64,000 nt of DNA, from contig JAJRZS010000018.1 of NCBI GenBank assembly GCA_024275135.1, forward strand, positions 89,826 to 153,825, given 5' to 3'. This DNA comes from Planctomycetota bacterium (GTDB lineage: Bacteria > Planctomycetota > UBA1135). Positions 7,375-59,444 of the stretch are shown here, piece after piece; position 1 is the first letter of the stretch; every line of letters begins with the position of its first letter. The position numbers and the translations under genes are program-made. The notes below the pieces were generated by a model that worked only from the letters and a program-made list of their open reading frames with translations, was not told where the DNA came from and did no database searches.

Positions 7375-8151
7375 ATGGGAGCCGAAGCGCTAAAGCCTAA
7401 CCGCATCGCGGAGGCTGAGCAATCCCCTCCAGCTGACCGCCCATTCTTCATGTCGTCATCCAAACCCTTAGCCCCCCACGCCCGGCTCGCCGCCGCCTGC
7501 TTATTGGAAGGATTGGTCGAAAGTGGGCTGGAAGCGGTAGCTTTTGCCGCCCAACCGGCCCCCACCCCAGCCCAAGCCCCCCTCCCCGCCGCCGACTTGG
7601 AAACTCGCATCGCGGCCTGCCGTGCCTGCGCTCTTGGCTCCAGTCGACAGTACCCGGTGCCGGGTGAAGGTAGTGGGCGCGCCCAACTGTTTTTCGTTGG
7701 CGAAGCCCCTGGAGCGGAAGAAGACCGCCAGGGACGCCCCTTTGTTGGTCCTGCGGGGCAGCTTTTGGACAAAATCATCGAAGGCGGCATGGGGTTGGCG
7801 CGCCAGGATGTGTTTATCGCCAACATTCTCAAATGCCGCCCTCCCGCCAATCGCGACCCTCTTCCCACCGAAGTCGCAGCCTGCACCCCCTTCCTGGAGG
7901 AGCAAATCGCCGCCCTCCAACCCAAACTCCTCATTGCCCTCGGTCGCCATGCTGCCCATCATCTGCTGCAGACCGAGGCCAGCCTCAGCAGCCTGCGTGG
8001 AGTCCTCCATAACCGCCCTCAGGGAGGCCCTAAGGTCCTTGTCACCTACCACCCTGCTTATTTGCTGCGAAATCCAGCGGCAAAGAGGGCTTGTTGGGAG
8101 GACATCCAGCTTGGAATGCAGTTTCTGGGCCTGCCCACCCCGCAGCGCTAA
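7375..8151 (+). CDS. Uracil-DNA glycosylase, family 4 (Fe-S type)
   Basis: CRACAL...GEGSGRAQLFFVGEAPGAEEDRQGRPFVGPAGQLLD signature. ATG 7450 is an alternative start. Confidence 0.85.
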   Translation: MGAEALKPNRIAEAEQSPPADRPFFMSSSKPLAPHARLAAACLLEGLVESGLEAVAFAAQPAPTPAQAPLPAADLETRIAACRACALGSSRQYPVPGEGSGRAQLFFVGEAPGAEEDRQGRPFVGPAGQLLDKIIEGGMGLARQDVFIANILKCRPPANRDPLPTEVAACTPFLEEQIAALQPKLLIALGRHAAHHLLQTEASLSSLRGVLHNRPQGGPKVLVTYHPAYLLRNPAAKRACWEDIQLGMQFLGLPTPQR

Positions 8152-8206: not shown

Positions 8207-8234
8207 TTGACGCGTAGCACCGCGCCGCCATAAT
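8207..8234 (+). promoter_or_regulatory. Candidate sigma70-type promoter for secretin 1
   Basis: TTGACG (8207-8212), 16-nt spacer, CATAAT (8229-8234), ~125 nt upstream of ATG 8359. Confidence 0.3.
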
Positions 8235-8358: not shown

Positions 8359-10920
8359 ATGCGTCACGACAGGAAGAATCTGTTGCTCCCTCTCCTGCTT
8401 CTCGGAGCTTGCTACAGCCCCGAGGCAGAGATTCACGATGGTGAATACGCCCTAACCGATAGCGCCCCGGCGCTGGTGGATCAGGAGCCCGAACTCACCC
8501 CATCTGCAGCCGCCGACGCCATCCAGGTGCGTCAGCAAAAGAATGCCCTTCTCGCCGAACAGTATGTTGCTTTGGGCAACGATGCTTTTGAGCGCGGCGA
8601 TTACGAAGGCGCAGCCATTCAATACGCAGAGGCCAATCGTCTCGATGCCACCAACGTCGAGGCACGCGACGGTTTACGGCGCTCCCAAGCCGCTATGTCG
8701 GGCAATGCCTATGACATCGATTCGGCGGAAAACGTGGTGCAAAATGAAGCCCTCAAACAAAGCGCGAATCGGATGCGCGTGGAGGGCTTGGTGCGGGACG
8801 GCGATCGCGCCATGGGTGCTGCGGATTACAGCACCGCCGTCGACAAATACACCATGGCTCTGCAGGCCCTCAGCTACAGCCCGAACATTGCCTATGGCGT
8901 CCTCGACACGGCCCTGGTGCAAGGCAAGCTTAACGAAGCGGTTGATGCTCGCAACTCCACGGAGGCTGCGGCTCGCCAAGCTGAAGCGCAAGCAGCAGCA
9001 GCGGAGGCTGCCGCCAAAGTCGCCGCCCAAGAGGCTTACAGCGCCAATCTCATTGCCACCTTCCTCAATGATGCCAACGAGCAGTTTATAGCTGGTTTTC
9101 CGGCCCAGGCGGTACAAACCTTGGATCAGCTCTTGCGCATCGATCCACGCAACGAAGAGGCTACGGCCCTGCGCGCGATTGCCTTGGAGGCCGCCAACCA
9201 AAATCGGCAACGCCAATCGGCCGAAGACTTCCGCGAGGGATGGCAGCGCACCTTCGAGGAGATGCGCACCATGGCTGCCCCTCCTATCGACAGCATTGAA
9301 TACGACCTCGACCACTGGGCCAAAATTGCCGACCGCGCGCCCTTGGATTTAGTCGAGCACGAGGCGGAAATGGATCCGGTCGAGGCCAGCATTCGCGCCG
9401 CCTTGGCTTCCACCCGCATCATCCCCAACTTCGATGATGCCCTCGAGGAAATCGTCCCCAACCTGCAAGCGTTCACCAAGGTCAACTTTGTGATTTCGCG
9501 CGCGGTGCGTGACGACATTGATGAAGATGTGAAAAACATTCGCATGACGTTCAAAAACGACATGCCGGTGGATCGCATCCTCAACATCATGGAGGATTTG
9601 ATGGGCGGCGAAGTTCGCTTTGTGGTCCGCAGTGGCGCCGTCTTTGTCGTCACCGCTGAAGAAGCCGATACCGAATCCGTCACCCGCCAATATGAGGTGC
9701 GCGACATCATTCGCCCGGTCAAAGATTTCCCCCTCGGCGATTTCAACTTGGTGCCCTCCGGTGGCATCGAAGCTAGCGACGAAGAGTTGCCAGAAACAGA
9801 AGCCACCATCCTCACTGAGGACGACCTCACACAAACCATTCAAGAGTCCATTGAGCCGGAATCCTGGGATGGCGAAGTGCACACCATCGCGGTGGAAAAC
9901 GGCACTTTGATTGTGCGCCATCGCCCCGAGGTCCAAGCCGAAGTCGCCCAGATGTTGGAAGATTTGCGTGTTCCCGCCAACATCATGGTGGACATCAAAG
10001 TACGCTTCTTACGCGTGGAAGACAGCTTCCTCGAAGATGTAGGCGTGGATTTCCGCGGCCTCGGTAACGACGCCACTTCCGGCGCTGCCGGCAAAGGTGA
10101 TTCCTTGGTGTTCGATGATTTCGGCGCCAACGCTGGCTCTCCTGGCGCCCCGGGCACGCTTGGCACCGGCAACGATAGTGGAGCCATCTTCCGTGAGGCC
10201 AACAACGACTTAACCATCCTCAGCCGTACCGAAAACCTCTACGACACGGCCCTGGGCGACAACGCCATCCTGACCAACTCCGGTGGTTTGGCCTTGCAAT
10301 ACACTTGGCTCGACGACACCCAGTTGGAAATGATTCTGCGCGCGGTGAAAAAATCCAAGCGTTCCGAGTTAGTGATCGAACCCAGCTTGATGGTTTACAA
10401 CACCGCCCGCGCCAACTTGGTGGTGGCGAACCAGGTCTCCTATGTCTCCGACTTCGACGTCGAGATTGCCTCTTCCGCTTCCATCGCCGACCCCATCGTG
10501 CAAGTGGCTAATGACGGGGTTTACTTGGATGTTCGTCCTGTGGTCACCGCCGACCGCCGTTTCGTCTGGATCGATGTGCGGCCCACAGTCGCCAACCTGT
10601 TACGCCCCATCCCTACTTTGCAAACCTCCTTGGGCGTTGGTTCTCCCGTCACTTTGATGTTGCCCCAACTCGAACTGCAGAAGGTGCGCACCCGCGTGAT
10701 TTTGCCCGATGGCGGCACACTGATGTTGGGCGGCATGAAGATCTTGACCGAGCAAGAAATGGAATCCGGCATTCCATTCCTTAACCGCATTCCGGTTCTG
10801 TCTTTCTTCTTCTCGCGCAAAGGCACCTTCGAGACTTACCAGAAGCTGGTCATTTTGCTCACCGCCAACATCATCCTTTTGGATGAGTTGGAGCCCGCAA
10901 AATTGCCCAGCGGCTTCTAG
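8359..10920 (+). CDS. Secretin (GspD/PilQ class) with lipobox and N-terminal TPR region
   Basis: Signal peptide ending LLLLGAC. TPR-like repeats (ALGNDAFERGDYEGAAIQYAEANRLDATNVEA). N0/Secretin_N-like modules (TLIVRHRPEVQAEVAQMLEDL). Secretin core VRFLRVEDSFLEDVGVDF...GGTLMLGGMK...IPFLNRIPVLSFFF. Confidence 0.9.
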   Translation: MRHDRKNLLLPLLLLGACYSPEAEIHDGEYALTDSAPALVDQEPELTPSAAADAIQVRQQKNALLAEQYVALGNDAFERGDYEGAAIQYAEANRLDATNVEARDGLRRSQAAMSGNAYDIDSAENVVQNEALKQSANRMRVEGLVRDGDRAMGAADYSTAVDKYTMALQALSYSPNIAYGVLDTALVQGKLNEAVDARNSTEAAARQAEAQAAAAEAAAKVAAQEAYSANLIATFLNDANEQFIAGFPAQAVQTLDQLLRIDPRNEEATALRAIALEAANQNRQRQSAEDFREGWQRTFEEMRTMAAPPIDSIEYDLDHWAKIADRAPLDLVEHEAEMDPVEASIRAALASTRIIPNFDDALEEIVPNLQAFTKVNFVISRAVRDDIDEDVKNIRMTFKNDMPVDRILNIMEDLMGGEVRFVVRSGAVFVVTAEEADTESVTRQYEVRDIIRPVKDFPLGDFNLVPSGGIEASDEELPETEATILTEDDLTQTIQESIEPESWDGEVHTIAVENGTLIVRHRPEVQAEVAQMLEDLRVPANIMVDIKVRFLRVEDSFLEDVGVDFRGLGNDATSGAAGKGDSLVFDDFGANAGSPGAPGTLGTGNDSGAIFREANNDLTILSRTENLYDTALGDNAILTNSGGLALQYTWLDDTQLEMILRAVKKSKRSELVIEPSLMVYNTARANLVVANQVSYVSDFDVEIASSASIADPIVQVANDGVYLDVRPVVTADRRFVWIDVRPTVANLLRPIPTLQTSLGVGSPVTLMLPQLELQKVRTRVILPDGGTLMLGGMKILTEQEMESGIPFLNRIPVLSFFFSRKGTFETYQKLVILLTANIILLDELEPAKLPSGF

Positions 10921-10934
10921 ACCGCGAAACCAGG

Positions 10935-10970
10935 CGGCCGGGAGCGCATAGACGTTCCCGGCCGTTTCTA
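10935..10970 (+). terminator. Hairpin after secretin 1 (weak terminator/attenuator)
   Basis: CGGCCGGGA / TCCCGGCCG 9-bp GC stem with a 12-nt loop, followed by TTTCT. Confidence 0.35.
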
Positions 10971-11010
10971 ATCCCACTCAGGCCTAGGGCCTGCACTTGA
11001 GAGAGAACGC

Positions 11011-11871
11011 ATGTTTGCACTCAGCTCCGGATTCCTACTCAGCATCCTTCTGCCCTTTCAAGGTGGAGGAGCCAGCCCTGTGGCGTTAAAAAACGCCGAG
11101 GCTGCGCGCGCCATCACCATCGAATTTGGCCTTGATTATTGGGCTGGCAAACTCATCGACCGCGCCCTTGCAGAGGCCAAAACCGCCGACGACAAATCGG
11201 AATTGTTGCTCGCGCGTTGCGATGTCTTGCGTCTAACAGCCAATCGTCGGGTGAACGACAAGGAACGCCTCCCCGCCTTGGGAAAAGCCGGTGAAGCCTA
11301 TGTGACCTTCCTCGACAGCAGTCCCGGCGCCGACCGCGTCACCAAAGCGCAAACCAATTTGGGGATTTTAGCCAACCAATATGGCTCCACCTTGGTGCGC
11401 ATGATTGAGAATGACGTCATTGGCAAGGAGCGCGAAGAAGCGGTGCAAACGGCGGAAACCATCTTCAAGCGGGCGCTCAAAGGCATGAATTCCATCATCG
11501 ACTGGTGGGAAGCTCTGCCAGATGACAACCCGCAAAAAAACCTCAACCAATTCACGGTTTACTATCCCACCGTCTTCAACCGTGCTTTGGTCTACTTGTA
11601 TTGGGCCCAACTTTACCCCGCCGGTTCGGTCGAGCGCAATCAACGTGCCAAGCAAGCTATCGCCTACCTGGAAGAGTTTGCCATCGGCGCGCCCTTCCTC
11701 CCTTCGCAGCGAGCTTATAAGGCTCTGGCTGATTGCTACCACGTCCTTGGTCAGCTCGAGGATGCCTACGACTATTACGACTATGTTTCTTCCAATGTCA
11801 AAGAGCTGTTAAGCCAAGAAACCGACCTTGATCCAGCCTTTGTCGAGCAACTTCACGACACCATCCAATAA
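11011..11871 (+). CDS. Helical-repeat (TPR-like) protein with signal peptide
   Basis: 286 aa with hydrophobic N-terminus and repeated helix-pair pattern. Same reading frame as the next ORF, separated by a single TAA. Confidence 0.6.
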   Translation: MFALSSGFLLSILLPFQGGGASPVALKNAEAARAITIEFGLDYWAGKLIDRALAEAKTADDKSELLLARCDVLRLTANRRVNDKERLPALGKAGEAYVTFLDSSPGADRVTKAQTNLGILANQYGSTLVRMIENDVIGKEREEAVQTAETIFKRALKGMNSIIDWWEALPDDNPQKNLNQFTVYYPTVFNRALVYLYWAQLYPAGSVERNQRAKQAIAYLEEFAIGAPFLPSQRAYKALADCYHVLGQLEDAYDYYDYVSSNVKELLSQETDLDPAFVEQLHDTIQ

Positions 11872-11892
11872 GCCAATTACGGATTGTTGAAG

Positions 11893-13854
11893 ATGCTCCG
11901 CGAATCGGGTCAGATTGCGAAGTTCTGGGAAACTTACGACGCCTTCATGCAGTGGGTCGACGAGGAACGGGTGGAATATTCCCGCAATGGTTATGAATTG
12001 TCTTTGGTTGTCGCCGAACAAATGGTGGATGAAAACCGCATTGCGGAAGCGATTGCGCTCGCAGATGAAGTGGCTACCGAAAATTCACGCAGCACCCTAC
12101 GTTTGCGCGCCAACTCGGTCATGGGCCGCGCCATCGCCTTAGCTCCGCCCGACGCGAAAATCCCGCTCGACATTCTCTACGGTTCTGCCGAGGGTGCTTA
12201 CTACCAGAAAGACTACCAGGCTGCCGTCGACGGTTTCCGCTTACTGCTACCCCGTCTTGCCGGCACCCAAGATGCCGATGAGTTTGGCGCCAAGGCCTAT
12301 TACTTCCTAGGTCTTTCTTGGTCGCGCTTGCATCACCCGATGCTGGCGGCCGTCACCCACCAGCTGGGTTATGAGGATTATCCCGACGACGAAACCTACG
12401 CCATTAAAAATGCCGAAAAATGGCAGACCTTGGCCGCTGGTTTTTTTAAGCGCGCCAACACCGATCGTGATTTGCAGGCTTTCAACGACGAGGCCATTGC
12501 CGCGGTAAGTGCCGTCGGCGGCGGCGGCGATGATTTGGAATGGAACCAGGCCAAAAGCCTGAACGATTTGGCCCGCCAAGCGGCTGGCAAACACCCCAAA
12601 GCCGCCCCTGGCTCGACCGAAGCCAAAGCGATTGTCCGCGCCTATCAACGGGCGGCCGATGCTTATGCCAAAGTCAAGGCCGAAAGCAGCAACTATGAAA
12701 AGGCCCTGGTTGCCCGCGCGATTTGCGTTTACGAAAGCATTCGCTTTGATCCAGCCGCAGCGGATCTAGCCCTGCAGTTGCTTCATGACTATTTGGATAC
12801 CTATGTTCCCGACCCGGCTCATGCCCCCAAAGATCCGCGGGAGAGAAAGATTCGACGGGAGAAGCAACCGGAAGCGGTGTTTTATCTAGGCCGCACCTAC
12901 CGAGAAGTAGCCAAGGGTGGAGACAGATCTGCCTGGGAGAAAGTGCTTTCCACTTACGACGGCATGCTCGACCGCTTTCCCGACCAAACCGAACTGGGCT
13001 ATGCTGCGATGAGCTACCGGGTCGAAGCTTTTGTGCGTTTGCAACGCATGGAAGAAGCGGAAGCAGAGTACCAGAACATGGTGGCCATTCCAGCAACCAA
13101 GAGTCGTCTCGCGATTGCCGCCTTCACTCTGTACAACGAGTATCGCTTGCGTACCGAGGCAGCCGAAGAACCGGCCGATGTTTTAGCCAACCGCACCAAG
13201 CAAGCGGAATATCTCTCGGCCTTCAATACCTACTCGAGCGTCAAGCGTTGGCCCAACTTACTTGGGGAAGCCGAACTGTGGGCTCAATTGGGGGCTTACG
13301 ACAAGGCCTCCGAGCTCTACCAAGGCATCCTCGATAAATTCAGCAAGGCTAAAGATTTCACGGATGCTTATGCTTTCAAAGTTCGGCTAGGGCTAGTGGA
13401 ATCGTTGTTGCAATTGCGCCGAATCGGCGAAGCGGTGCCTTTGGTTGATGAGCTGTACAAGCAACGGCCCAAAAACCTGCGTGTGCGTATTGCGGTGGTC
13501 AAAGTGAAGGCAGGTTTCTTGATTTGGGACGGCAAGCAAGTTTTGGAAGTTCCGGGTGAAGGCACCCCCGAAGCTCTCGATTTGGCTACCACCATGGCTG
13601 GGGAACTCATTCACGTCGCCGACTACGAAGCAAGCAAACAAGATCCTCCGCTCAACCACTATTACTACCCCCCCTGGTGGGAAGCCAAGCTAATGCAAGC
13701 CTATGTGCTATATCAGCGCGGCAAAACCAACCCAGCCGACCTTGGCAAACACAAAAAGTTGGTCGCGGGTTTGCAAAAGCAAGCACCCGACCTCGGCGAA
13801 GCTGTGGCGGGTTCTCGCATGTCCAAAAGCCTCCTCTGGCTCCTCAATCATTAA
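11893..13854 (+). CDS. Large TPR-repeat protein
   Basis: ~650 aa with many TPR-like units (e.g. YDKASELYQGILDKFSKAKDFTDAYAFKVRLGL). ATG 11893; ORF opens at TTG 11884. Confidence 0.7.
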   Translation: MLRESGQIAKFWETYDAFMQWVDEERVEYSRNGYELSLVVAEQMVDENRIAEAIALADEVATENSRSTLRLRANSVMGRAIALAPPDAKIPLDILYGSAEGAYYQKDYQAAVDGFRLLLPRLAGTQDADEFGAKAYYFLGLSWSRLHHPMLAAVTHQLGYEDYPDDETYAIKNAEKWQTLAAGFFKRANTDRDLQAFNDEAIAAVSAVGGGGDDLEWNQAKSLNDLARQAAGKHPKAAPGSTEAKAIVRAYQRAADAYAKVKAESSNYEKALVARAICVYESIRFDPAAADLALQLLHDYLDTYVPDPAHAPKDPRERKIRREKQPEAVFYLGRTYREVAKGGDRSAWEKVLSTYDGMLDRFPDQTELGYAAMSYRVEAFVRLQRMEEAEAEYQNMVAIPATKSRLAIAAFTLYNEYRLRTEAAEEPADVLANRTKQAEYLSAFNTYSSVKRWPNLLGEAELWAQLGAYDKASELYQGILDKFSKAKDFTDAYAFKVRLGLVESLLQLRRIGEAVPLVDELYKQRPKNLRVRIAVVKVKAGFLIWDGKQVLEVPGEGTPEALDLATTMAGELIHVADYEASKQDPPLNHYYYPPWWEAKLMQAYVLYQRGKTNPADLGKHKKLVAGLQKQAPDLGEAVAGSRMSKSLLWLLNH

Positions 13855-13857
13855 GCC

Positions 13858-14925
13858 ATGTTTTTGTCCTGCTCTCTGCTACTTCCCCTCCTCCTTCCTG
13901 CTGCTGCCCAAAGCCGTGTAGTGCAGGTAGACGGTAGTACTCTCTCCGGCAAACTCGTAGCCGCCACTTTAGAGCAAGTAACCCTGAAAAACGCCGACGG
14001 CAAAAGCCGCGAGCTGGCGGCTGGGGATGTGCTGCAGATTTACCCGGCACCTCTCACCGAGATGTTGCTCAAGGGGGAAGCCTTTCTCAAAGATTTGGAT
14101 TATCAAAATGCCAGCAGCGCCTTCGAGGCTGCGGGTAATGAGTCCGGAGATTTCTGGGTTGCTCCCTATGCTCTGCTGCGCCAAGCTGAAACCCTGCTCG
14201 CTTGGGCGCAGATGGATCGTGCCCGCGCCTCCGATGCCGCGCGTGCCTTCCGTTCCTGGATGGACGCCAATACGGACAGTTTTTGGATTCCGCGTGCAGA
14301 AATGGGTGCGGCGAAGGCCATGGCTATGGCCGGGGATGTGGATGGCGCCACCTCCCTCATGCAAAAGCTGGCCGATACCGCCTTTGAAAAGAACCTTGGC
14401 AAGCATGTGGAATTGCAGGTCAATTTGGTGCGGTGCGAGGCCTTCCTCATCGGTGGCCAAGCCGAGGTCGCGGAAGCTCGGTTGCGCGACTTGGTGGTCA
14501 AGCTTGGCAATGCGGTGCAAGATCCCAAAGCCCCGGAAGGCACCCGCAGCTTGATTCTCAACTTGTATTCCCAATCGCAAATCTTGCTTGGTGATGCCAT
14601 CCACAGCAAAGATGGCCCCCAAGCTGCCGCCCCTTACTGGCAAGGCTTGGCCAAAGACCGAACGGCCACTCCGAATGTGCGCGCTGCGGCCTGGATTGGC
14701 ATTGCAGAAGCTGCACGCGCTGCGGGCCACCCGCGTCAAGCGCAACTCCACCTGGCCAAAGTGGTCGCCACTTTGCCGGCCTCCGAGGAAGTCATGGCCC
14801 ACGCCCTCTACCTCCTAGGCGAGGTGTCCACCGAGTTAGGCGATACCCCAACGGCAGGTGATTTGTACCGCCGACGCCTGCTGGATCGCTACCCAAGTAC
14901 TTCCTGGGCGGCCAAGGCCCGCTGA
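13858..14925 (+). CDS. Secreted TPR-repeat protein
   Basis: Signal peptide LLLPLLLPAAAQS, small N-terminal beta-like domain, then TPR-like repeats. Starts 3 nt after the previous stop. Confidence 0.7.
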   Translation: MFLSCSLLLPLLLPAAAQSRVVQVDGSTLSGKLVAATLEQVTLKNADGKSRELAAGDVLQIYPAPLTEMLLKGEAFLKDLDYQNASSAFEAAGNESGDFWVAPYALLRQAETLLAWAQMDRARASDAARAFRSWMDANTDSFWIPRAEMGAAKAMAMAGDVDGATSLMQKLADTAFEKNLGKHVELQVNLVRCEAFLIGGQAEVAEARLRDLVVKLGNAVQDPKAPEGTRSLILNLYSQSQILLGDAIHSKDGPQAAAPYWQGLAKDRTATPNVRAAAWIGIAEAARAAGHPRQAQLHLAKVVATLPASEEVMAHALYLLGEVSTELGDTPTAGDLYRRRLLDRYPSTSWAAKAR

Positions 14926-15010
14926 TTCCACCCTACCCTTAGCCTCAATTGCTGCTAGAATCTCCCTCTTCCCGGTGAACCTACTCACCGAAACCCAACG
15001 CGTCAAAGAA

Positions 15011-15721
15011 ATGTCCCGATTCCGTTACTTCCCACCGGCCCTGACCGGTTTCCTCCTGCTCGTCGGCAATCTCCTCGCTCAGGAGGAAACGAAGGAAGGT
15101 GGCACCAACTTCCTTGATGCCATCGCCTCCGCCGGTGCCATTGGTTACCTCATCATTTTGATGTCCGTCGTCGCCATGGCCCTGATTATCGAACACTTCA
15201 TGACTTTGAAGCGGGAAAAACTGGCCCCGCCTGAAGTCATCGACGAAATCGAGGAGCTTTTCCAAGAAGGCAACTACCAGGAGGCCTTGGAAGCCTGCGA
15301 AGCCACTCCATGCTTCTTCAGTAACGTCACCGCCGCTGGCATCCGCAAGCTAGGCCATCCTTTCTCCACCATTGAGAAGGCCATTGAGGAGATGGAAGAC
15401 GAAGAAGGCGTCAAGCTTCAACAGAAAATTGGCTGGCTCTCCTTGATTTCTGGTATCGGCCCGATGATGGGATTGTTCGGAACGGTAACCGGTATGGTCG
15501 GTGCTTTCGCCACCATCGGTAATTCAGGAGCAGGCGGCGTAAACCCCGCCGACTTCGCGGCCGACATCTCTTTGGCGCTGATGACCACCGTGTTGGGGCT
15601 GACTGTGGCCATCCCCACCACCGCCTTCTATGCCTTCTTCCGTAACAAGGTTTCCCTGGTCACCATGGAAATCAGCGGCCTGGTGGAAGACATGTTCGAG
15701 CGTTTCCGCACTACCGAGTAA
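15011..15721 (+). CDS. exbB: MotA/TolQ/ExbB-family proton channel
   Basis: GIGPMMGLFGTVTGMVGAF...ISLALMTTVLGLTVAIPTTAFYAFFRNKV signature. Start trimmed to ATG 15011 (MSRFRYF). Confidence 0.9.
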   Translation: MSRFRYFPPALTGFLLLVGNLLAQEETKEGGTNFLDAIASAGAIGYLIILMSVVAMALIIEHFMTLKREKLAPPEVIDEIEELFQEGNYQEALEACEATPCFFSNVTAAGIRKLGHPFSTIEKAIEEMEDEEGVKLQQKIGWLSLISGIGPMMGLFGTVTGMVGAFATIGNSGAGGVNPADFAADISLALMTTVLGLTVAIPTTAFYAFFRNKVSLVTMEISGLVEDMFERFRTTE

Positions 15722-15788
15722 AGAATCTGCTGCTTTTGCGGGGGCTGGGTTACCACCCCCGCACTCCCTGCTAGCTTGAACAAACACC

Positions 15789-16415
15789 ATGGCCAGAAGA
15801 CGCGAAGCTGATACCGAAATCGAGATCGACATGACGCCGATGATCGACATGACCTTCCTGTTGATCATCTTTTTCATCATTGTGAATGACATGTCGAAGA
15901 AGGAGCTCGAGGAACTCAAGCTGCCCATTGCCATGGAGGCCGGTCATGATGAGCCGCCGAAGACCCGACCCATCCTCAATGTGCGATGGTTCCCTGCCGG
16001 TGGGGTTCCCAAAGCCGTTAAGAGTCAATACCAGGCCATGGGGATTGCCATCCCCGATAATCGCGAGTGGTCCGACATCGTATGGAAGGGTAATATCTTG
16101 TATTACCCCAACATGGACACGCAGGGTCGCACCGACCCCATCCGCAAAGGGCGTCCGGATTATTACTGGAAGTTGGCGCAAACCATGGAGATTCAGTGGG
16201 TGCCCTACTTCAAAACCAAGATGGACGACACCCTCCATATCGAGTTGCCTGATGACCCGGTGCTGATTCGCGCTGATCGCAACACCCCGTTCAAATACCT
16301 GCAAAAGATTATGGAGGTATGCACGCGGGACAAAATTAAGATTTGGAAGATTCAGCTTGCCGCTTCGGAAGACCCCGAGAAGGTTGCCGCGCGCGAGGCT
16401 GCAAAGAAAAAATAA
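15789..16415 (+). CDS. exbD: ExbD/TolR-family protein (long form, 208 aa)
   Basis: IDMTPMIDMTFLLIIFFII N-terminal signature. Periplasmic part is ~60 aa longer than usual. Confidence 0.85.
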   Translation: MARRREADTEIEIDMTPMIDMTFLLIIFFIIVNDMSKKELEELKLPIAMEAGHDEPPKTRPILNVRWFPAGGVPKAVKSQYQAMGIAIPDNREWSDIVWKGNILYYPNMDTQGRTDPIRKGRPDYYWKLAQTMEIQWVPYFKTKMDDTLHIELPDDPVLIRADRNTPFKYLQKIMEVCTRDKIKIWKIQLAASEDPEKVAAREAAKKK

Positions 16416-16426
16416 AGGAGGGAGTG

Positions 16427-16936
16427 ATGGCCAAGAAAAAGAAGAAATTCGAAGAGATCAAGCCCGACATGACGCCGATGATCGACGTCACCTTTCTGCT
16501 CTTGATCTTCTTTATCGTCACCCTCAAGTTCAAGGTCTTGGAAGGCCGTTTGGATGCAGCCTTGCCCAAAGACCGCGGCACCTCCACTTCCGAAGCCCCG
16601 GAAGTCGACAAGCTCGACATCTTGCTGATGGTGGCCGATCCAGGAGAGTTGGTCCAAGACAAAGATAATAAGCGGCTGAAGGTTTATGAAGGCCGTCGTA
16701 TCCGTGTCGAGATTGGTGCTCAGAAGTGGTACTACGATCCTTTCAACATCGAAGACACCTCCAACCCCATTCCCGCACTCACCAAGTTCCTCAAAACCTT
16801 CGACAAGGTTGAAACCCCAGTTTCCATTGATGCACGCAAGGGCATTGTTTATGGGGATGTGGTGGTCATTCTGGACGTGGTAGTGCGTGAAAAATTCGAG
16901 AAGGTGTCCTTCGCGGGCACTTTCGAACAAGACTAA
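16427..16936 (+). CDS. exbD: ExbD/TolR-family protein (second copy)
   Basis: PDMTPMIDVTFLLLIFFIV. ATG 16427 preceded by AAGGAGG. 21 nt identical to copy 1 across the signature. Confidence 0.85.
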   Translation: MAKKKKKFEEIKPDMTPMIDVTFLLLIFFIVTLKFKVLEGRLDAALPKDRGTSTSEAPEVDKLDILLMVADPGELVQDKDNKRLKVYEGRRIRVEIGAQKWYYDPFNIEDTSNPIPALTKFLKTFDKVETPVSIDARKGIVYGDVVVILDVVVREKFEKVSFAGTFEQD

Positions 16937-16956
16937 CATCAAACGGGCAGGTGGGG

Positions 16957-18537
16957 ATGCAACATCACCCTTCTCGGGATGGGCAAACGGCGGACCACGA
17001 GGAGTTGCGTGCTGCCTTGCACCAAGCGGCTGACACGGTTGCCGATTACTTAAGCAATCTCGGACAGCAGCCGATTTTCCCTGCCCATCCGCAGGCCCCA
17101 CATGGCGCTTTGCTACCCGAGCATGGCCGTGATTTGGCTTCGGTTTTCGAAGTCACTTCCTCCTGGGCCGTAGCCAATGCAGTCCATGTTGGGCATCCAG
17201 GTTATGTGGGTCATATGGATTCGGGAGTGAATCCGGCGGCCATTCTGGGTGATTTTCTAGCCTCTGCGCTCAACCAAAACTTGCTCGCCTTTGAACTAGC
17301 CCCCGGCGCCACTTTACTGGAGAAAAAGCTGCTCCAACTTTTCGCCGAGGAAGCGGGTTTGCCAGCCACCGCGGGCGGGGTATTGACCACCGGCGGCACC
17401 ACCGCCAACCTCACCGCCTTGTTGCTTGCACGCGATGCCAAACGCCCCTCCGCCACCCGCCGGGGTCTTGCAGACTCACCACCGCTTTGCGTCCTCGCCT
17501 CTGCGGATGTGCATTATTCCATTGCCAAAGCCTGTGCCGTTTTGGGGTTGGGCAGTGAACATGTGATTGCGGTGGCCACCACCGGCCCCGCCCGGCGCCT
17601 GGATCCCGCAGATTTACCCCGAGCCATGGACACCGCCCGCGCACGTGGCTTAGAACCTGCAGCCGTGGTCGCCACCGCCGGTACCACCAGTTGCGGAGCC
17701 ATCGACCCGCTAACCGCCATCGCCGATTTCTGCGCCGCCGAAAACTTGTGGCTCCATGTCGACGCAGCCCATGGCGGTGCCTTGCTACTCCACCGCCAAG
17801 AAAAACGGCGATTGCAAGGCATCCATCGCGCCGACTCCATTACCTTGGATCCTCACAAATGGCTCTATGCGCCCAAAAGTGCCGGCATCTTGTTGGTGCG
17901 CCACAGCCAACAATTAAAAACAGCCCATTACGCAGCCCCCTACCTCGACCGCTTCAGCGACCACGGCGAAGCCTTGCCCGTCAGCCAAGGCCGCCGCGCT
18001 TTGGACGGCAGCCGACGCTTCGACGCCCTGAAGGTCTGGATGCTACTGTGCCACTATGGGCGCTCCGGAATCGAGAGTCTGCTTTCTAGCCGTCTTCAAC
18101 TCTCCCAAGATCTCCACCAAGCCCTCCTTGACCACCCCTTCTTTGCCCCCTGCCACCAACCCGACCTCAACGTTCAGGTCTTTCAGCCGCGCGATTCCGC
18201 ACAAATTGCCCATATTGCCGCTGCACACCGCCGCTTAGAGGCGGGAGGCCGCTTTTGGTCCTCCTATACCCGCCTCGATGGCCAACCCTGCCATCGCATG
18301 GTCCTGCTCAATGCCACCACCCAAATGGCCGATTTGGAACAACTTTTGAGGCATTTGCAAGCGGCTCACCTAACCCCGGCCAACTCCACCCGGCTCCCGC
18401 CATATCTGTGCCCAAAAGGGCGTAGCGTGGCCTCACGGGGGCTGTTACATTCTTCCCCTAGCCATCGCCCCAAAGGCGGTCGCCAAGTGGCTTTGGGTGA
18501 CCAACCCAATTCCACCGCCCCAAGCTCGGATCCCTAG
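16957..18537 (+). CDS. Group II pyridoxal-phosphate-dependent decarboxylase
   Basis: GGTTANLTALLLAR and SITLDPHKWLYAPKSAGILLV (PLP-Lys). Low-complexity C-terminal tail. GTG 16951 is an alternative start. Confidence 0.85.
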   Translation: MQHHPSRDGQTADHEELRAALHQAADTVADYLSNLGQQPIFPAHPQAPHGALLPEHGRDLASVFEVTSSWAVANAVHVGHPGYVGHMDSGVNPAAILGDFLASALNQNLLAFELAPGATLLEKKLLQLFAEEAGLPATAGGVLTTGGTTANLTALLLARDAKRPSATRRGLADSPPLCVLASADVHYSIAKACAVLGLGSEHVIAVATTGPARRLDPADLPRAMDTARARGLEPAAVVATAGTTSCGAIDPLTAIADFCAAENLWLHVDAAHGGALLLHRQEKRRLQGIHRADSITLDPHKWLYAPKSAGILLVRHSQQLKTAHYAAPYLDRFSDHGEALPVSQGRRALDGSRRFDALKVWMLLCHYGRSGIESLLSSRLQLSQDLHQALLDHPFFAPCHQPDLNVQVFQPRDSAQIAHIAAAHRRLEAGGRFWSSYTRLDGQPCHRMVLLNATTQMADLEQLLRHLQAAHLTPANSTRLPPYLCPKGRSVASRGLLHSSPSHRPKGGRQVALGDQPNSTAPSSDP

Positions 18538-18545
18538 CTTTCCCC

Positions 18546-21179
18546 ATGAACAGAACCCTGAAATCGGCTTCTTGCCTAAGCCTATGCCTAGCCTTTTTGG
18601 TTTTGGGCTGTGCTTCTCCTGAGTCCTCCACTGACGAGGGCGAAGCTCTTTACTCCTCCACTCCCGAGCAACCCATGATGGATGCTGCCGCGGAGCAGAG
18701 CGATGCCGAAGTCTTAGCGCAAGGTATCCAACAAGACGCATTGCGCGATCAAAAAGTTGCGCTGTTAGTGCGTGAGCATGTCATGAGTGCGCGCATGGCC
18801 TATGCCGACGCACGCTTGCTCGAAGCGGAAAACGATTTGCTCGCAGCTTTAAAACTGGATCCCACGGCAAAAGATGCTCGTGCCTTGCTGGAGCAAGTGC
18901 AGGTGGCTTTGGGCAAAGCCAACGCCGACATCACCGGTTCTAGCGATGATGTGCGCGAACAAACCATGGCCCGTGCTGCTCGCCTCCGTGCTGATGCCGA
19001 AGCTAATTTGCAGGCCGGTCGCAACTACCTGATGGAAGGCAACTACGATGTCGCCATCGGCAAATTGCGTTTGGCTCGTAGCATTATCCAAGGTTCGGAT
19101 TTGCGCATTGATTGGGGCGGTATGGGTACTGAGGTCGAGAGCCTACTCAACCAAGCAGAAAATGAGCGTGAGATGGCGATGGCTGCCCAACGCGATGCCG
19201 CAGCTCGGGCCACCTTTGAGGCCTTGCAGGAAAAGCGTCAGCTGGAATTGGAGCGCCGGAACCTGCGCCTCGACGCCATGCTCGCTGACGCCATTCAGGC
19301 CTTTGACAACTACAAGTTTGATCAAAGCATCGGCCTTTGCGAAGACATCCTCCGCGAAGACCCCCTCAACGCCCGCGCACGCGAACTTATCACCACCGCG
19401 CAAAAAGCCCGCCACACCAACATCGAAGAATCTTGGGTGCAAAAGCGCAGCGAGCGCTATCAAAATTGGCTCACGGAAATTGAAGAAGCGCGGGTGTTGA
19501 GCACCGAAATCATGCAGATGCCCGATCCTGCGCATTGGAAGCGCATTTCCGACTTGCGAGAATCCTTCCGCGTCGCCAACGCCGATGATGAAGATTCCGA
19601 GCTCAACCTGGGCCTCATGCGCGACATCACCGAGCAGCGCATTCCAAGCCTAATTTTCGAAGGCGAAACTTCGCTGGAAACGGTTATCGACCAATTGCGC
19701 ACATTCACCAGCATCCCCTTCGTCGTCACTCCCGACGCCGTCGATGCTGTGGACAGTGAAGGCATCGAGTTCAACCTCAACATGACTCATGAGTTGAGCG
19801 TGGCCAACGCCCTCAACATCATCACTGAAGTTGCCGGTCCTGGAGTTACCTACACCTTCCGTCATGGGGTGGTCTACATCACCTCCACCGAGAAGGCCCA
19901 CAACAACTTGGTCTTGCGCCCCCACGAAATCCGCGACCTCACCGCCATGGTGGTCGATCACGCGGGGCCGAAGATTCAAGAAATTCGTCTTCCCGACGGC
20001 GAATACGACGATGAGGATGGCCCCCAGTTTGGTGGTCCGATTGGCGAAGCCGTTCCGCTCATGGATCCTGACAACCTCGTCACCCTAGTTCAGCAAGGAG
20101 TTGCCACGGGCACCTGGGAGAACGATGGGGTCAGCATTCAAGCCATGAACGGCCAGCTGTTTGTGCGTCAAACCCCAGAAGTCCACCAAGAAATCGAAGA
20201 CTTCCTTGCTGGATTCCGCCGCTACACCTCATCCATGGTCAATATTGAGGCCAAGTTCCTCACCATCACCAAGGATTACCTTCAAGAAATCGGTGTGGAT
20301 TGGCGCGGCAATGGCGGCAACTCCACAGCTTTGGATTTGGTCAATCTCGACGATGTCACTTCCGGCTTTGACGATAACGCCTCCTTGGCCCTCGACAATG
20401 ATGGTCCTGGCTTGCCCTCCGGCGCCGATTCCAATCCATCTGCCGGTGCCTACTTCAACGACTTCACAGATGGCGATTTGCGCGTGCGTACGGAAAACAT
20501 CCTCGGAGCTTATGGTGCTCGTTTAGGCACCACCGGTGGTCTGGCCATGCAACTCTCCTTCCTGGACGATTTGCAATACAGTTTGATTCTCAACGCGGTG
20601 GAGAAAAACCAGCATGCTCAGGAGCTCACCTCCACCATTTTGTCGGCGCAAAACACCCAACGCGCCTACGCCACGATGCTCAACCAAATCACCTATGTGC
20701 AGGATTTCGATGTGGAAGTCGCCTTGGCGTCCTTCATCGCCGATCCCATCATTGGTGTGATTTCGGACGGCATTGTGCTGGATGTGCGCCCCACCATTGC
20801 TCAGAACCGCAAATACATCACTTTGGAGCTACGCCCCACCGTCGCCACCATCGTGCAGCCCATTACCGAGTTCACCTCCTCCTTGGCGGCCCTCACCGTC
20901 CCCATCACCATCCAACTTCCCGAGTTGCAAATCTCCTCGGCGAATACCACGGTGGTGGTCCCCGATGGCGGTACGGTTGTCATTGGTGGCTTGAAGAAGC
21001 TGTTCAACATTGATCAGCGCGCGGAAATCCCTTTCCTCTCCGACATTCCCGTCCTCAGTTTGCTGTTCAAGACGGAGGGAGAGGCCGAGGAGAATAAGGA
21101 CGTCATCCTGATGATTCGCGCTACCATCATCGATGCCAACGAGATGCAAGACGCTCTCGACGCCAGCCTCGGCAACTAA
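18546..21179 (+). CDS. Secretin (paralogue of 8359-10920) with lipobox and N-terminal TPR region
   Basis: Signal peptide ending FLVLGC. TPR-like units (AGRNYLMEGNYDVAIGKLRLA; FDQSIGLCEDILREDPLNARA). QLFVRQTPEVHQEIEDFLAGF. Core AKFLTITKDYLQEIGVDW...GGTVVIGGLKK...IPFLSDIPVLSLLF. Confidence 0.9.
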   Translation: MNRTLKSASCLSLCLAFLVLGCASPESSTDEGEALYSSTPEQPMMDAAAEQSDAEVLAQGIQQDALRDQKVALLVREHVMSARMAYADARLLEAENDLLAALKLDPTAKDARALLEQVQVALGKANADITGSSDDVREQTMARAARLRADAEANLQAGRNYLMEGNYDVAIGKLRLARSIIQGSDLRIDWGGMGTEVESLLNQAENEREMAMAAQRDAAARATFEALQEKRQLELERRNLRLDAMLADAIQAFDNYKFDQSIGLCEDILREDPLNARARELITTAQKARHTNIEESWVQKRSERYQNWLTEIEEARVLSTEIMQMPDPAHWKRISDLRESFRVANADDEDSELNLGLMRDITEQRIPSLIFEGETSLETVIDQLRTFTSIPFVVTPDAVDAVDSEGIEFNLNMTHELSVANALNIITEVAGPGVTYTFRHGVVYITSTEKAHNNLVLRPHEIRDLTAMVVDHAGPKIQEIRLPDGEYDDEDGPQFGGPIGEAVPLMDPDNLVTLVQQGVATGTWENDGVSIQAMNGQLFVRQTPEVHQEIEDFLAGFRRYTSSMVNIEAKFLTITKDYLQEIGVDWRGNGGNSTALDLVNLDDVTSGFDDNASLALDNDGPGLPSGADSNPSAGAYFNDFTDGDLRVRTENILGAYGARLGTTGGLAMQLSFLDDLQYSLILNAVEKNQHAQELTSTILSAQNTQRAYATMLNQITYVQDFDVEVALASFIADPIIGVISDGIVLDVRPTIAQNRKYITLELRPTVATIVQPITEFTSSLAALTVPITIQLPELQISSANTTVVVPDGGTVVIGGLKKLFNIDQRAEIPFLSDIPVLSLLFKTEGEAEENKDVILMIRATIIDANEMQDALDASLGN

Positions 21180-21185
21180 CCCTTC

Positions 21186-21222
21186 ACCGCCTTCTTCCCA
21201 CCCGGGAGAGGGCGGTTTTTTT
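21186..21222 (+). terminator. Rho-independent terminator closing locus A
   Basis: ACCGCCTTCTTCC / GGGAGAGGGCGGT 13-bp stem (two G-U pairs), 5-nt loop, then TTTTTTT. Confidence 0.75.
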
Positions 21223-21955
21223 ATACCGACAGTCCGTAGTGCTCAGCCAACAAGTGGCGCAACTCGACAAAATCCTCCAGCACATGGGTGGGTGCCGTGT
21301 GTGGTGGAGTGCGCGAATGCTTGCCCGTACCTCGAATCCATACCGTACGTAAGCCAGCAGCGTTGGCCGGGTCGACATCGTGGAAAGGATGGTCGCCCAC
21401 ATGCATGACTTCAGCCGCTGGGACTCCGGCCACCTCAATGCAGCGGGTGTAAAGCATGGGGTTGGATTTGGCGATACCAACAGCATCGGTAATAAACAAC
21501 AGCTCGGGATCGATATAGCGGTCCACCCCAAGCCGCAATAGTTTCTCGATTTGCTTATGCACCAAACCAGCACTAATCACGCCCAACCGCAAATCGGTAG
21601 CCGCCAAAGCTTGCAATAACTCTTCGGCTGCTGGGCGGATGCGAAGCTCCTGCCATTTGGCATTGTGATAGGCAATCACCCCGGCCACCACAATTAAATC
21701 GCGGTTGCCGCCAGCAGTTGCCGCAGCTGGCAGACGCTTAAGCAGTCGGTTGTAGTGGTGATCATCATTGGAACCAAATTCAGCCACGATTTGGTTCAAC
21801 TCTTCGAGCACCAAAGCCGCATCCGCCTTCAAGCCATGAGCACACATGGCCTCGACCGCCTTGGCGCGCGCCTTTTGAACGAAATCCGAAGTGCCGAACA
21901 AGGTGTCATCAATATCCAAGAAGATGACTTTCAGCGGCGGAGGAGCAACAGTCAT
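21221..21955 (-). CDS. HAD-superfamily hydrolase
   Basis: VIFLDIDDTLF (DxDxT) and HVGDHPFHDV motifs. Confidence 0.8.
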   Translation of the reverse strand: MTVAPPPLKVIFLDIDDTLFGTSDFVQKARAKAVEAMCAHGLKADAALVLEELNQIVAEFGSNDDHHYNRLLKRLPAAATAGGNRDLIVVAGVIAYHNAKWQELRIRPAAEELLQALAATDLRLGVISAGLVHKQIEKLLRLGVDRYIDPELLFITDAVGIAKSNPMLYTRCIEVAGVPAAEVMHVGDHPFHDVDPANAAGLRTVWIRGTGKHSRTPPHTAPTHVLEDFVELRHLLAEHYGLSV

Positions 21956-27780: not shown

Positions 27781-27842
27781 GTCTGGATTGTAGAGTGCCG
27801 CTGGGCGGGGCCCAACGTCTACTCGGCGAAGACCTTTTGGCC

Positions 27843-29921: not shown

Positions 29922-29955
29922 TCTGTGTGCCCTTAGCCTGAATCCCGTCTACTAG

Positions 29956-31554
29956 GTGATGGAAAAACCCATCCTTGGAGCCACCCTTTTCGGCAGCCAC
30001 GCCCACCTTATCCGTGTGGAAACGCGCACTGGGCGTGGATTATCCCGAGTAATCTTGGTCGGCATGCCGGATGCCGTGGCGCGGGAAGCCCGAGAACGCC
30101 TGCCTTCCGCTTTGCAAAAGCATCAATTCCCGTTTCCCAAAGGCAAGGTTTTGTTCAACTTAGTTCCCGCCCAGTTGCCAAAATGCGGGCTGCCCTTTGA
30201 TTTGGCTCTGGCTATTTCCCTACTGGTCGAAGAGAAGCTCTGTCCGCCACCTCCCTCCCTCACCTTGTTCCTTGCTGAATTGGATTTACAAGGGCGCTTG
30301 GGCCCGCCGGCCAGAGGCACCTTGCTCGCTGCCTTGGCTGCGGTGCAAGGGTCCTGTACCCAACTCATCACCGCCCCAGCGGCGGCGCAAGAAGCCAGCC
30401 TCGCACCGGGAATCCAAGCCTATGGATTGGTGGATTTGGGCGAAGTCGTCCAGTTCTTGCGCAAGCCACAAAACTATGCCCCACAAACTCCGTTATCCCC
30501 AAGCCACCTGCAAAGCTCCGCCCTGCGTCTCGATGATCTACGTGGCCAAAAACATGCACGCAAAGCCGCCATCCTCGCCATCGCCGGTCGCCACTCGCTG
30601 TGGATGCAAGGCCCTCCAGGCACAGGCAAAAGCATGCTGGCGCGCCGGTTAAGCCATTTGCTTCCAGATTTAAGTGCGCAACAGGCCCTGGAAGTGGCCC
30701 AAATCGAAGCACTCCTCGGCCCTCTATCCGCCCTTAGTTTGCGCCCGCCTTTCCGCGCCCCCCATACCAGCGCCTCGGCCCAAGCCCTCCTTGGCGGTGG
30801 CAACCCCTTGCGCCCTGGAGAAATCGCCAGAGCGCATGCCGGAATTTTATTTTTGGATGAAATGCCGGAATTCACTCGCCCTGTCCTGGAAGGATTACGC
30901 CAGCCACTGGAAGAAAAGGAGGTGCGGCTGCAGAGGGCCCGAGCTTGGGCCACTTATCCAGCGGATGTGCAACTCATTGCCACCAGCAATCCCTGTCCTT
31001 GCGGTTTCGCCACCCACCCCAAAATCCCTTGCACCTGCACCCCAGCCAAACTGCAAACTTACTACCAACGCATCAGCGGACCATTGCGCGATCGTTTTGA
31101 TCTTTTTGTCGAAATGAGTCCAAGCACTGCAGAAGAATTGGAAGGGCCACCATCGCCTCCCCACGACGAAGAAGTGGTGCAAAGATTGCAAAAAACCCGC
31201 CAATTTCAAAATCAACAAAAGCTGCAGAGAGGATTTGGGCAAAGTACGAGTGCAAGTTTGGAGCAAATCCAACATTGCGGTTTGGAGAGCCAAGCCGCAG
31301 GTGTTTTGCGTCAAGCCGTAGCTAAGCTCCCCCTCAGCGGGCGAGGAGTTTTGCGATGTTTACGCGTTGCCCGCACCGCTGCAGACTACGATTTGAGTGT
31401 ACAAATCCGCGCCCAAGATATGCATCTCGCGCTTAGTTTTCGCCCGCTTCCGGTTGCGAAATCCACCACAGCGCCATCCCATTTTCCTCTGCGCGTTTTT
31501 CCCCGCCGAACTGAACAAAAAGCTGCGCACTCGCCTGGTGGCTCACCAAACTAA
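29956..31554 (+). CDS. comM: Mg-chelatase-like AAA+ protein ComM/YifB
   Basis: GPPGTGKSMLARRL Walker A, ILFLDEMPEF Walker B, Cys cluster NPCPCGF. Unusually long tail after ALSFR. Confidence 0.9.
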   Translation: MMEKPILGATLFGSHAHLIRVETRTGRGLSRVILVGMPDAVAREARERLPSALQKHQFPFPKGKVLFNLVPAQLPKCGLPFDLALAISLLVEEKLCPPPPSLTLFLAELDLQGRLGPPARGTLLAALAAVQGSCTQLITAPAAAQEASLAPGIQAYGLVDLGEVVQFLRKPQNYAPQTPLSPSHLQSSALRLDDLRGQKHARKAAILAIAGRHSLWMQGPPGTGKSMLARRLSHLLPDLSAQQALEVAQIEALLGPLSALSLRPPFRAPHTSASAQALLGGGNPLRPGEIARAHAGILFLDEMPEFTRPVLEGLRQPLEEKEVRLQRARAWATYPADVQLIATSNPCPCGFATHPKIPCTCTPAKLQTYYQRISGPLRDRFDLFVEMSPSTAEELEGPPSPPHDEEVVQRLQKTRQFQNQQKLQRGFGQSTSASLEQIQHCGLESQAAGVLRQAVAKLPLSGRGVLRCLRVARTAADYDLSVQIRAQDMHLALSFRPLPVAKSTTAPSHFPLRVFPRRTEQKAAHSPGGSPN

Positions 31555-42440: not shown

Positions 42441-42525
42441 CTTCACAATGACCCGGTCGAAGGAACCAAGACCTCCACGCGAAGGTGCGCGGAGAATGCG
42501 GTCGGCAAAGTTTAGCAGAAACACC

Positions 42526-48591: not shown

Positions 48592-48627
48592 GATTGTGGC
48601 CTGGCCTCCGATAGAATCCAAGCGCCT

Positions 48628-49455: not shown

Positions 49456-49461
49456 ATCGTC

Positions 49462-56192: not shown

Positions 56193-56194
56193 GC

Positions 56195-59311: not shown

Positions 59312-59444
59312 CCTGGAGAGGTGGGTCACGGTTTCCATGTGGATTGGGGACGTACGGTTGCGCTGCACCGAGGGCCCTATCGTAGAAACTTCAGGCCAAG
59401 TCCGCTGTATCTATACGAGCAATTCCCATACCAATCCCAGAAAT

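Follow-up and report, generated by a model that had tools for sequence, protein, structure and literature searches.

The window analysed here, 64,000 nucleotides (64 kb) of a Planctomycetota bacterium (GCA_024275135.1, contig JAJRZS010000018.1, positions 89,826 to 153,825), carries at 8359-21179 a block of genes, all on the + strand, in which two lipoprotein secretins bracket an ExbB/ExbD- or TolQ/TolR-type inner-membrane motor and two exported tetratricopeptide repeat (TPR) proteins. The block forms one operon that is fixed in the deep-branching Saltatorellus clade of the Planctomycetota, and its composition matches no described system; a single trans-envelope machine is its most likely product. 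The reading we favour, which draws on gene order within one clade, is that this machine is driven by the proton-motive force (PMF), with the secretin pair as its outer-membrane end and with no ATPase, and we give it a probability of roughly 45%. The broader claim that the core genes act together, summed over all readings that assume so, is a probable one. The elements of the block, in order, are:

8207..8234, + strand: promoter-like site TTGACG-16-CATAAT upstream of secretin 1, 10/12 matches
8359..10920, + strand: secretin 1, 853 amino acids (aa), lipoprotein signal with Cys18, Pfam Secretin 83.3 bits (cut-off 27.5)
10932..10967, + strand: hairpin 3' of secretin 1, 15-bp GC-rich stem, RNAfold -28.7 kcal/mol, then UUUCU (poor U-tract)
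11011..13854, + strand: exported TPR superhelix of about 945 aa, one gene, with an in-frame TAA at 11869-11871
13858..14925, + strand: TPR355, exported protein of 355 aa, weak Pfam TPR match, C-terminal TPR region
15011..15721, + strand: ExbB/TolQ-type proton-channel subunit, 236 aa, Pfam MotA_ExbB (PF01618) 85 bits, transmembrane (TM) segments
15789..16415, + strand: ExbD/TolR-like subunit 1 (ExbD1), 208 aa, Pfam ExbD (PF02472) over residues 8-64 only, one TM segment
16427..16936, + strand: ExbD/TolR-like subunit 2 (ExbD2), 169 aa, Pfam ExbD (PF02472) 61.5 bits, profile positions 4-124 of 128
16957..18537, + strand: group II pyridoxal phosphate (PLP)-dependent decarboxylase, Pfam Pyridoxal_deC 203 bits, between ExbD2 and secretin 2
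18546..21179, + strand: secretin 2, 877 aa, lipoprotein signal with Cys22, Pfam Secretin 80.8 bits (cut-off 27.5)
21186..21222, + strand: intrinsic-terminator-like hairpin, 13 bp with 8 GC pairs and a T7 run, -23.4 kcal/mol, closing the block

The tight spacing of these genes, together with one promoter-like site and one strong terminator, supports the reading of the block as a single machine. Nine same-strand open reading frames (ORFs) are separated by 90, 21, 3, 85, 67, 11, 20 and 8 nt, and biologically sensible starts, with ExbB beginning at 15011 and ExbD2 at 16427, reproduce these spacers, so that the number of ORFs and the coordinates, starts and spacers of the preliminary description of this DNA are borne out by the ORF reading. 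The promoter-like site is a consensus match only, in a region where two such sites were found and 5.1 are expected by chance. The closing hairpin with its T-run lies where it had been reported. The hairpin after secretin 1 had been called the weaker of the two, a label that does not fit its longer and more stable predicted stem, though its U-tract is indeed poor; it is possibly an attenuator or an RNA-stabilising element. Placed directly after secretin 1, it might give that gene a different expression level from the rest of the operon. The base composition of the block is ordinary for the window. Profile searches of the nine ORFs against Pfam and against NCBIfam, the latter with its curated equivalog cut-offs, upheld the earlier assignments of ExbB, two ExbDs and two secretins, and gave weak TPR matches in ORFs 1, 3 and 4 and none in ORF2. 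The earlier statement that the block holds neither a Walker A ATPase nor TonB also stood up to a scan for motifs, proline content and TM segments: the Walker A motif is absent from all nine ORFs, none of the nine has a proline-rich stretch (the maximum is 6 Pro per 40 residues), TM segments other than signal peptides are confined to ExbB, ExbD1 and ExbD2, and the block contains no TonB-type ORF and no spacer long enough for one.

Both flanking proteins of the block are genuine members of the secretin superfamily with periplasmic N-domains. Their description as liposecretins is confirmed by the lipobox cysteine, C18 of secretin 1 (signal LLGAC) and C22 of secretin 2 (VLGC), which is invariant when the two paralogues of several genomes are aligned. 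Secretin 2 is a full-length, colinear paralogue of secretin 1 at about 29-31% identity and repeats its layout of lipobox, TPR region, N-domains and secretin domain. The AlphaFold2 (AF2) model of secretin 1 has a TPR-like helical domain at about residues 48-304, an N0-like domain at about 340-446, a second N-domain at about 487-554 and the secretin domain at about 640-840, the two alpha/beta N-domains being modelled at a predicted local distance difference test score (pLDDT) of about 80-89. In Foldseek searches this model matched PilQ, BfpB, InvG, PulD/GspD and pIV with E values of 6e-12 to 1e-6 over 550-630 columns; by sequence, the secretin domain alone matches solved secretins, at about 1e-9 or weaker. 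Both proteins lie below the NCBIfam cut-offs for GspD, PilQ, MshL, Amuc_1098, SctC and HofQ (47-108 bits against 238-750), and these TPR-fused liposecretins form a divergent family. With the secretins of known systems (GspD of type II secretion, PilQ and MshL of type IV pili, Amuc_1098, SctC and pIV) they share the genuine secretin fold and its N-domains; they differ in the fused TPR domain of 250 residues, in an operon without ATPase, platform protein or pilin, and in the arrangement of two paralogues around a PMF motor. N-terminal lipidation is familiar from self-piloting liposecretins such as HxcQ, and TPR modules from the pilotins PilF, PilW and Tgl.

Between secretin 1 and the motor the preliminary description counted three TPR proteins. 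ORF2 (11011-11871) and ORF3 (11893-13854) share one frame with only the TAA at 11869-11871 between them, a 948-aa protein of a relative aligns across the stop as a single tblastn high-scoring segment pair, and all relatives examined have one gene of 930-1020 aa in place of the two. ORF2 and ORF3 are one gene, and the block therefore holds two TPR genes, not three. In the nearest relatives the stop aligns with a Glu codon (GAA) amid well-conserved sequence on both sides, which points to a GAA-to-TAA change that arose either by recent nonsense mutation or through an error in the assembly. The NCBI annotation treats the downstream part as a separate 653-aa protein, and if the stop is real this part would have no signal peptide. 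A 71%-identical homologue was modelled by AF2 (pLDDT 87.9) as an all-alpha, TPR-like superhelix with residues 1-18 disordered. Against solved structures this model retrieved generic TPR scaffolds only (TM-scores 0.15-0.27), and the fold match to a Campylobacter flagellar periplasmic scaffold (9hmf_K) is an analogy and not evidence of homology. A profile search among 1.84 billion representative proteins returned 231 clusters of this protein, nearly all 930-1020 aa long, and in every locus with readable surroundings the gene lies inside the present cluster, between secretin and motor. The gene order of the cluster is kept, up to the contig ends, in four loci taken from the far edge of the family, and it is complete in the one that lies on a long contig. 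The 945-aa protein is therefore a specific marker for the cluster, and its family marks the clade.

The motor consists of one proton-channel subunit and two different ExbD-like chains. ExbB matches solved TolQ (9e-8) and solved ExbB (3.5e-7) about equally and keeps the TM2 and TM3 motifs common to both, its GLFGTVTG aligning with GLFGTVWG of TolQ. ExbD1, which scores 54 bits against PF02472, has a conserved TM region (DMTPMIDM) and a divergent periplasmic part; in ExbD2 the corresponding DMTPMIDV is conserved in orthologues, and the TM aspartate of the DMTPMID motif is thus kept in both. All of the motor proteins score far below the NCBIfam equivalog cut-offs for TolQ/TolR and ExbB/ExbD (68.6 bits for tolQ against a cut-off of 221; 26.5 and 35.7 for tolR against 127.3). 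Immediately before the motor, in a position unchanged in relatives, lies TPR355. Its first 70 or so residues look beta-rich when the sequence is inspected by eye and are followed by TPR repeats. The best named match of TPR355 is the NCBIfam model tol_pal_ybgF (CpoB/YbgF), at 51 bits against a cut-off of 90.1 and through the TPR part only, and a faint match to the TPR region of PorW/SprE has an E value of 0.006. As read from their N-termini, the orthologues of TPR355 and of the 945-aa protein begin with ordinary cleavable signal peptides, and no TM anchor and no His-bearing TM helix is found at the N-termini of either set. It follows that ExbB, ExbD1 and ExbD2 are the only inner-membrane parts, and that the block has no transducer of the TonB, TolA or GltG type.

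Several of these matches bear on the view that the block is a tether resembling Tol-Pal, in which the motor and TPR proteins would pull on the outer membrane during division, budding or shape change and the lipidated TPR-secretins would serve mainly as anchors. A TolQ/TolR-like motor scoring against TolQ at least as well as against ExbB, and a TPR protein whose nearest named relative is CpoB, thought to have been ancestrally an outer-membrane TPR lipoprotein (PMC12204202), are both in keeping with it. So is the neighbourhood: in the window and in close relatives some 5 kb separate the block from mraZ-mraW-ftsI-murE, in an 8-Mb genome (locus L087) the cluster stands beside MreB/actin-like and ParA/MipZ-like genes (15604-18326), and the clade is known for constant remodelling of peptidoglycan and shape. 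A link of the cluster to division or shape is, on the strength of these neighbours, possible. The proximity to division genes is nevertheless lost in distant relatives, TolA, TolB and Pal are absent from the block, which has secretins instead, and the Tol equivalog scores are, as given above, far below cut-off. Full secretin domains conserved in both paralogues argue for a channel. A tether of this kind is decidedly unlikely.

The machine that we consider the best reading of the block can be sketched as follows. In the inner membrane the ExbB/TolQ-like proton channel, presumably a pentamer, would hold a heteromeric pair of ExbD1 and ExbD2. The two Sec-exported TPR proteins, the 945-aa superhelix and TPR355, would form a periplasmic scaffold and adaptor, and the two paralogous lipoprotein secretins, each with its own TPR and N0-like domain, would sit in the outer membrane. 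Proton flow would drive the ExbD1/ExbD2 stalk, which would act on the TPR scaffold without an intermediary, there being no anchored transducer of the TonB or TolA type. The work might then be delivered to the TPR and N0 domains of the secretins and gate, assemble or move the outer-membrane channels, so that no ATPase of their own would be needed for macromolecules from the periplasm (delivered by Sec or Tat) or from outside the cell to pass through the outer membrane. We infer contact, energy coupling, substrate and direction from what was observed, namely the parts, where they are predicted to lie and the conservation of their adjacency. To our knowledge, every characterised secretin ends an ATP-driven machine, whether type II or type III secretion, type IV pili or filamentous-phage export, and every characterised motor of the Tol/Exb type relies either on an anchored transducer (TonB, TolA, GltG) or on a long B-subunit of its own. 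A secretin pair joined to a PMF motor with neither ATPase nor transducer would bring together two families not known to cooperate.

Conservation of the arrangement is the central support for this machine. Homologues of secretin 1 in an initial search were all from uncultured Planctomycetota. A genome scan with one genome per species, for which the query was the alignment of both secretin paralogues, then gave 472 relatives, of which the best 80 loci were analysed; all 80 belong to the clade, and they include Rohdeia mirabilis Pla163, which belongs to the 'Saltatorellus' clade and is in culture (bioRxiv 10.1101/817700). Other cultured strains of the clade are Saltatorellus ferox Poly30 and Engelhardtia mirabilis Pla133; the locus was read in Pla163. 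The same order recurs in the 80 species-level genome loci and in 8 metagenome loci, down to 37% identity in secretin 1: a uracil-DNA glycosylase gene (UDG), a variable trio of genes, secretin 1, the 945-aa protein, TPR355, ExbB, ExbD, ExbD, a third ExbD in a few loci, the decarboxylase in some, secretin 2 and HAD. The preliminary description had expected ExbB, ExbD and TPR genes to be linked to the secretins in relatives, and this was found: among the 45 loci informative for the question, those with at least 9.5 kb of sequence after secretin 1, ExbB and ExbD follow secretin 1 in 44 and secretin 2 is present in 43, and the four loci from the edge of the 945-aa family agree. Locus L051 departs from the rule through an insertion of 8-9 kb between secretin 1 and the 945-aa gene (12400-21300), which contains two paralogous 545-aa ORFs on the minus strand, one with a faint match to squalene-hopene-cyclase repeats. 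Locus L086, from the most distant lineage sampled, has a sulfatase in the position of secretin 2 (19860-21683); that lineage carries three ExbDs, and L086 is its only locus long enough to show the site, L079 and L081 ending too early. A separate search with ExbB gave at least 120 matches, all at least 54% identical among the matches listed, and a 57%-identical one, on the 8-Mb genome mentioned above, has the same cluster around it. Two bins, L043 ('Myxococcota bacterium') and L058 ('Candidatus Paceibacteria bacterium'), have the same cluster and flanks as the metagenome-assembled genomes (MAGs) of Planctomycetota and are likely to be mis-binned or mislabelled.

A number of observations weigh against the machine proposed here. 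All of the gene context comes from loci within the clade, and the evidence for coupling is gene neighbourhood within that one clade, where genes with no obvious place in the machine are equally syntenic: UDG stands upstream of the cluster in 50 of the 52 loci with enough flank, and HAD is almost always downstream, its orientation inverted in the distant half of the clade. The conserved order is therefore suggestive, and not proof, of functional linkage. The sulfatase of L086 shows secretin 2 replaced in one lineage, and the window's own copy of the 945-aa gene carries a stop codon. [quoted passage not shown] Its TPR-TolQ-TolR-TolR order is that of 13858-16936 here, in the same phylum group; the present block differs in having no vWA protein and no SHLS/His TM transducer in the block or its annotated flanks, in being bracketed by secretins and in the 945-aa TPR gene that precedes it. 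Since the module stands alone elsewhere, the motor may be self-contained.

Upstream of secretin 1 there are further such points. In 19 of the 52 loci UDG and secretin 1 are separated by three extra genes (about 366, 194 and 307 aa), for example at 7230-9838 in L001, 7265-9878 in L003 and 5124-7617 in L005. They occur in a sub-clade at 48-60% identity and in some others; the window and its closest relatives lack them and have the rest intact. Inspected by eye, the first appears to consist of a cytoplasmic domain, a TM helix and, after it, a small periplasmic part, the second to open with a TM helix, and the third to have a TM helix, a proline-rich stretch and an FN3-like domain, a topology that resembles the PilM/N/O/P or GspL/M/C platform. 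Pfam gave no match to any of the three, a profile search against PDB sequences matched the FN3-like stretch only (E 0.003), and neither sequence nor profile comparison linked them to solved PilM/N/O/P or GspL/M/C. The gene that precedes secretin 1 in the most distant lineage looks, by eye, like PilM at its start (6361-9643 in L079, 6483-9747 in L086); that of L086 has a faint PilM_2 match (E 0.025) and no match in PDB, and its L079 counterpart has no Pfam match. Comparison by hhalign of the trio profiles with these two genes gave no link for the first two members and a weak one for the third (E 0.0018). It is chiefly on account of these platform-like genes that the secretins may have an ATPase-driven partner encoded elsewhere.

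These points come together in the view that two independent systems lie side by side: secretins like those of type II secretion or pili, with their ATPase, platform and pseudopilins encoded elsewhere, and a separate Tol-like or PVC-type motor. The upstream trio would then be an alignment complex similar to PilM/N/O/P or GspL/M/C, and the adjacency a frozen gene order. Besides the trio, the PilM-like starts, the equally syntenic UDG and HAD and the PVC module that occurs without secretins, this view has on its side the textbook association of all characterised secretins with ATPases. The window itself encodes a 186-aa protein with a prepilin-type N-terminus (RVGFTLPELLV; 44255-44815, minus strand) and a prepilin peptidase (47590-48621, minus strand), and thus has pilin-processing capacity 23-27 kb from the locus. 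What speaks for one system is that secretins bracket the motor in 43 of the 45 informative loci, that the spacers are short and the only internal hairpin lacks a U-tract, that the 945-aa marker stands between secretin and motor in every readable locus, that the window and its closest relatives do without the trio, and that the trio has no detectable relation to solved platform proteins. Neither the block nor the annotated flanks of seven relatives contain a platform protein (GspF/PilC) or a pilin. The type IV pili of cultured members of the clade are encoded in a cluster apart, which has PilM, PilO and a PilQ of its own, and these members also have PilB and PilT (bioRxiv 10.1101/817700, Table S2/S3). 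For these relatives the block secretins were accordingly rejected as the pilus secretin. The possibility, raised in the preliminary description, that the secretins belong to an ATPase system encoded elsewhere has therefore been narrowed: they are not simply the secretin of the pilus, and the platform-like trio of many relatives keeps the more general form of the idea alive. Two unconnected systems are, on balance, rather unlikely.

Among described machines the closest parts list, by analogy, appears to be that of the Agl-Glt core complex of Myxococcus, which comprises AglR with AglQ and AglS, the exported TPR proteins GltD and GltE, the TPR lipoprotein GltC and the TonB-like GltG (PMC3169522). 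Compared by composition, both have one TolQ/ExbB-like and two different TolR/ExbD-like chains, two TPR proteins with signal peptides, one of them very large, and an outer-membrane TPR lipoprotein, all clustered; an earlier likening of the motor to AglR/AglQ/AglS is thus apt as far as composition goes (one TolQ-like, two TolR-like, exported TPR proteins). The block differs in having no TM-anchored, proline-rich transducer of the GltG type and in outer-membrane parts that are secretins, not OmpA-like or autotransporter barrels, and its host belongs to a different phylum. One reading built on the likeness is surface motility, in which the motor would move TPR and outer-membrane parts against a substratum and so contribute to the amoeba-like locomotion of clade cells. 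The cluster is found clade-wide, and the locomotion of cultured members is unexplained by flagella or twitching; only the gld genes of Flavobacterium had been sought there, and they were not found. The block has, however, no anchored protein of the GltG/GltJ type, no adhesin and no cytoplasmic track component, most loci come from MAGs of planktonic marine or lake bacteria, and the authors of the Agl-Glt study deem the core complex insufficient for motility (PMC3169522). A motility engine of this sort is highly unlikely.

The Ton system and type IX secretion offer the remaining comparisons. With Ton the block shares ExbB and ExbD homologues with a conserved TM aspartate, and the idea of a PMF motor that opens an outer-membrane gate; it differs in having two ExbDs, no TonB and no TonB-dependent receptor nearby, and equivalog scores far below cut-off. 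The N0 domain of secretins has the same fold as the signalling domain found in TonB-dependent receptors. No such receptor is present among the annotated ORFs of the window, and the Pfam-annotated flanks (+/-10 kb) of seven relatives contain no TonB, TonB-dependent receptor, vWA protein or secretion ATPase, which disposes, for those flanks, of the earlier concern that relatives might carry tonB or a receptor beside this exbBD. Membership in Ton and in Tol-Pal alike fails on the defining partners. Type IX secretion (GldL/GldM, PorW/SprE, SprA) is a conceptual parallel, with a PMF motor, a TPR lipoprotein, a large outer-membrane channel and no dedicated ATPase; the motor and channel here have no homology to GldLM or SprA, and no gld or spr genes were detected in the cultured members of the clade. 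The literature searched, papers on the Saltatorellus clade included, yielded no description of the locus or of a system of secretin, ExbBD and TPR proteins, in line with the earlier remark that no characterised system has this composition.

The operon extends the PMF-motor/TPR type of trans-envelope complex, with the secretin pair as a new outer-membrane partner, and would potentially found a new class if the coupling is demonstrated. The stronger proposal, that the block represents a class of secretin machine not recognised before and peculiar to the Saltatorellus clade, a 'TonB-less' PMF-gated conduit working through soluble TPR scaffolds, is possible and at the same time doubtful. If it is true, such a conduit could underlie the uptake or export of macromolecules, or the shape-shifting and surface locomotion of the clade, and would be a defined candidate for powering outer-membrane work in bacteria whose cell biology is very unusual. 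The presence of the locus in cultured Rohdeia mirabilis Pla163 opens the system to experiment. The TPR-fused liposecretin family, the 945-aa family as a marker of the clade and the correction of the split gene stand even if the coupling is wrong.

The PLP-dependent decarboxylase is a passenger of the block. It had been listed as one of its genes, which is right for the window; it is not a core part, since it occurs in 12 of the 45 informative loci, all 12 at 48% secretin-1 identity or above, and its gain or loss leaves the core order intact. Its nearest named family is diaminobutyrate decarboxylase (NCBIfam 250 bits against a cut-off of 900). Locus L010 keeps only fragments of the gene (18788-19128). 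A phage or defence origin of the block was rejected with PADLOC and PHROGs, which gave no match beyond the PLP fold of the decarboxylase in the former and the pIV-type secretin domain in the latter.

In the window the upstream flank is of housekeeping character, with mraZ/mraW, a Der GTPase, a radical-SAM protein and UDG (7375-8151). Downstream lie a HAD hydrolase (21221-21955) and an Opp-type ABC system. The latter separates secretin 2 from a ComEC-type competence channel and a ComM-like ATPase of the Mg-chelatase family (27795-31554, + strand), about 6.6 kb downstream of secretin 2. Farther away, on the minus strand, an OmpA-family (Pal-like) lipoprotein is encoded at 46881-47567, 26 kb from the block and in one stretch of 4.5 kb with the genes for the prepilin-like protein and the prepilin peptidase. 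Just upstream of the prepilin peptidase gene a 275-aa lipoprotein and three paralogous lipoproteins in tandem, 1041-1206 aa long, are encoded (48628-59368). Faint Big_5 matches were seen in the 1041- and 1057-aa lipoproteins and no Pfam match in the 1206-aa paralogue; a fourth Big_5 protein, of 1119 aa, is encoded on the same strand at 39318-42677.

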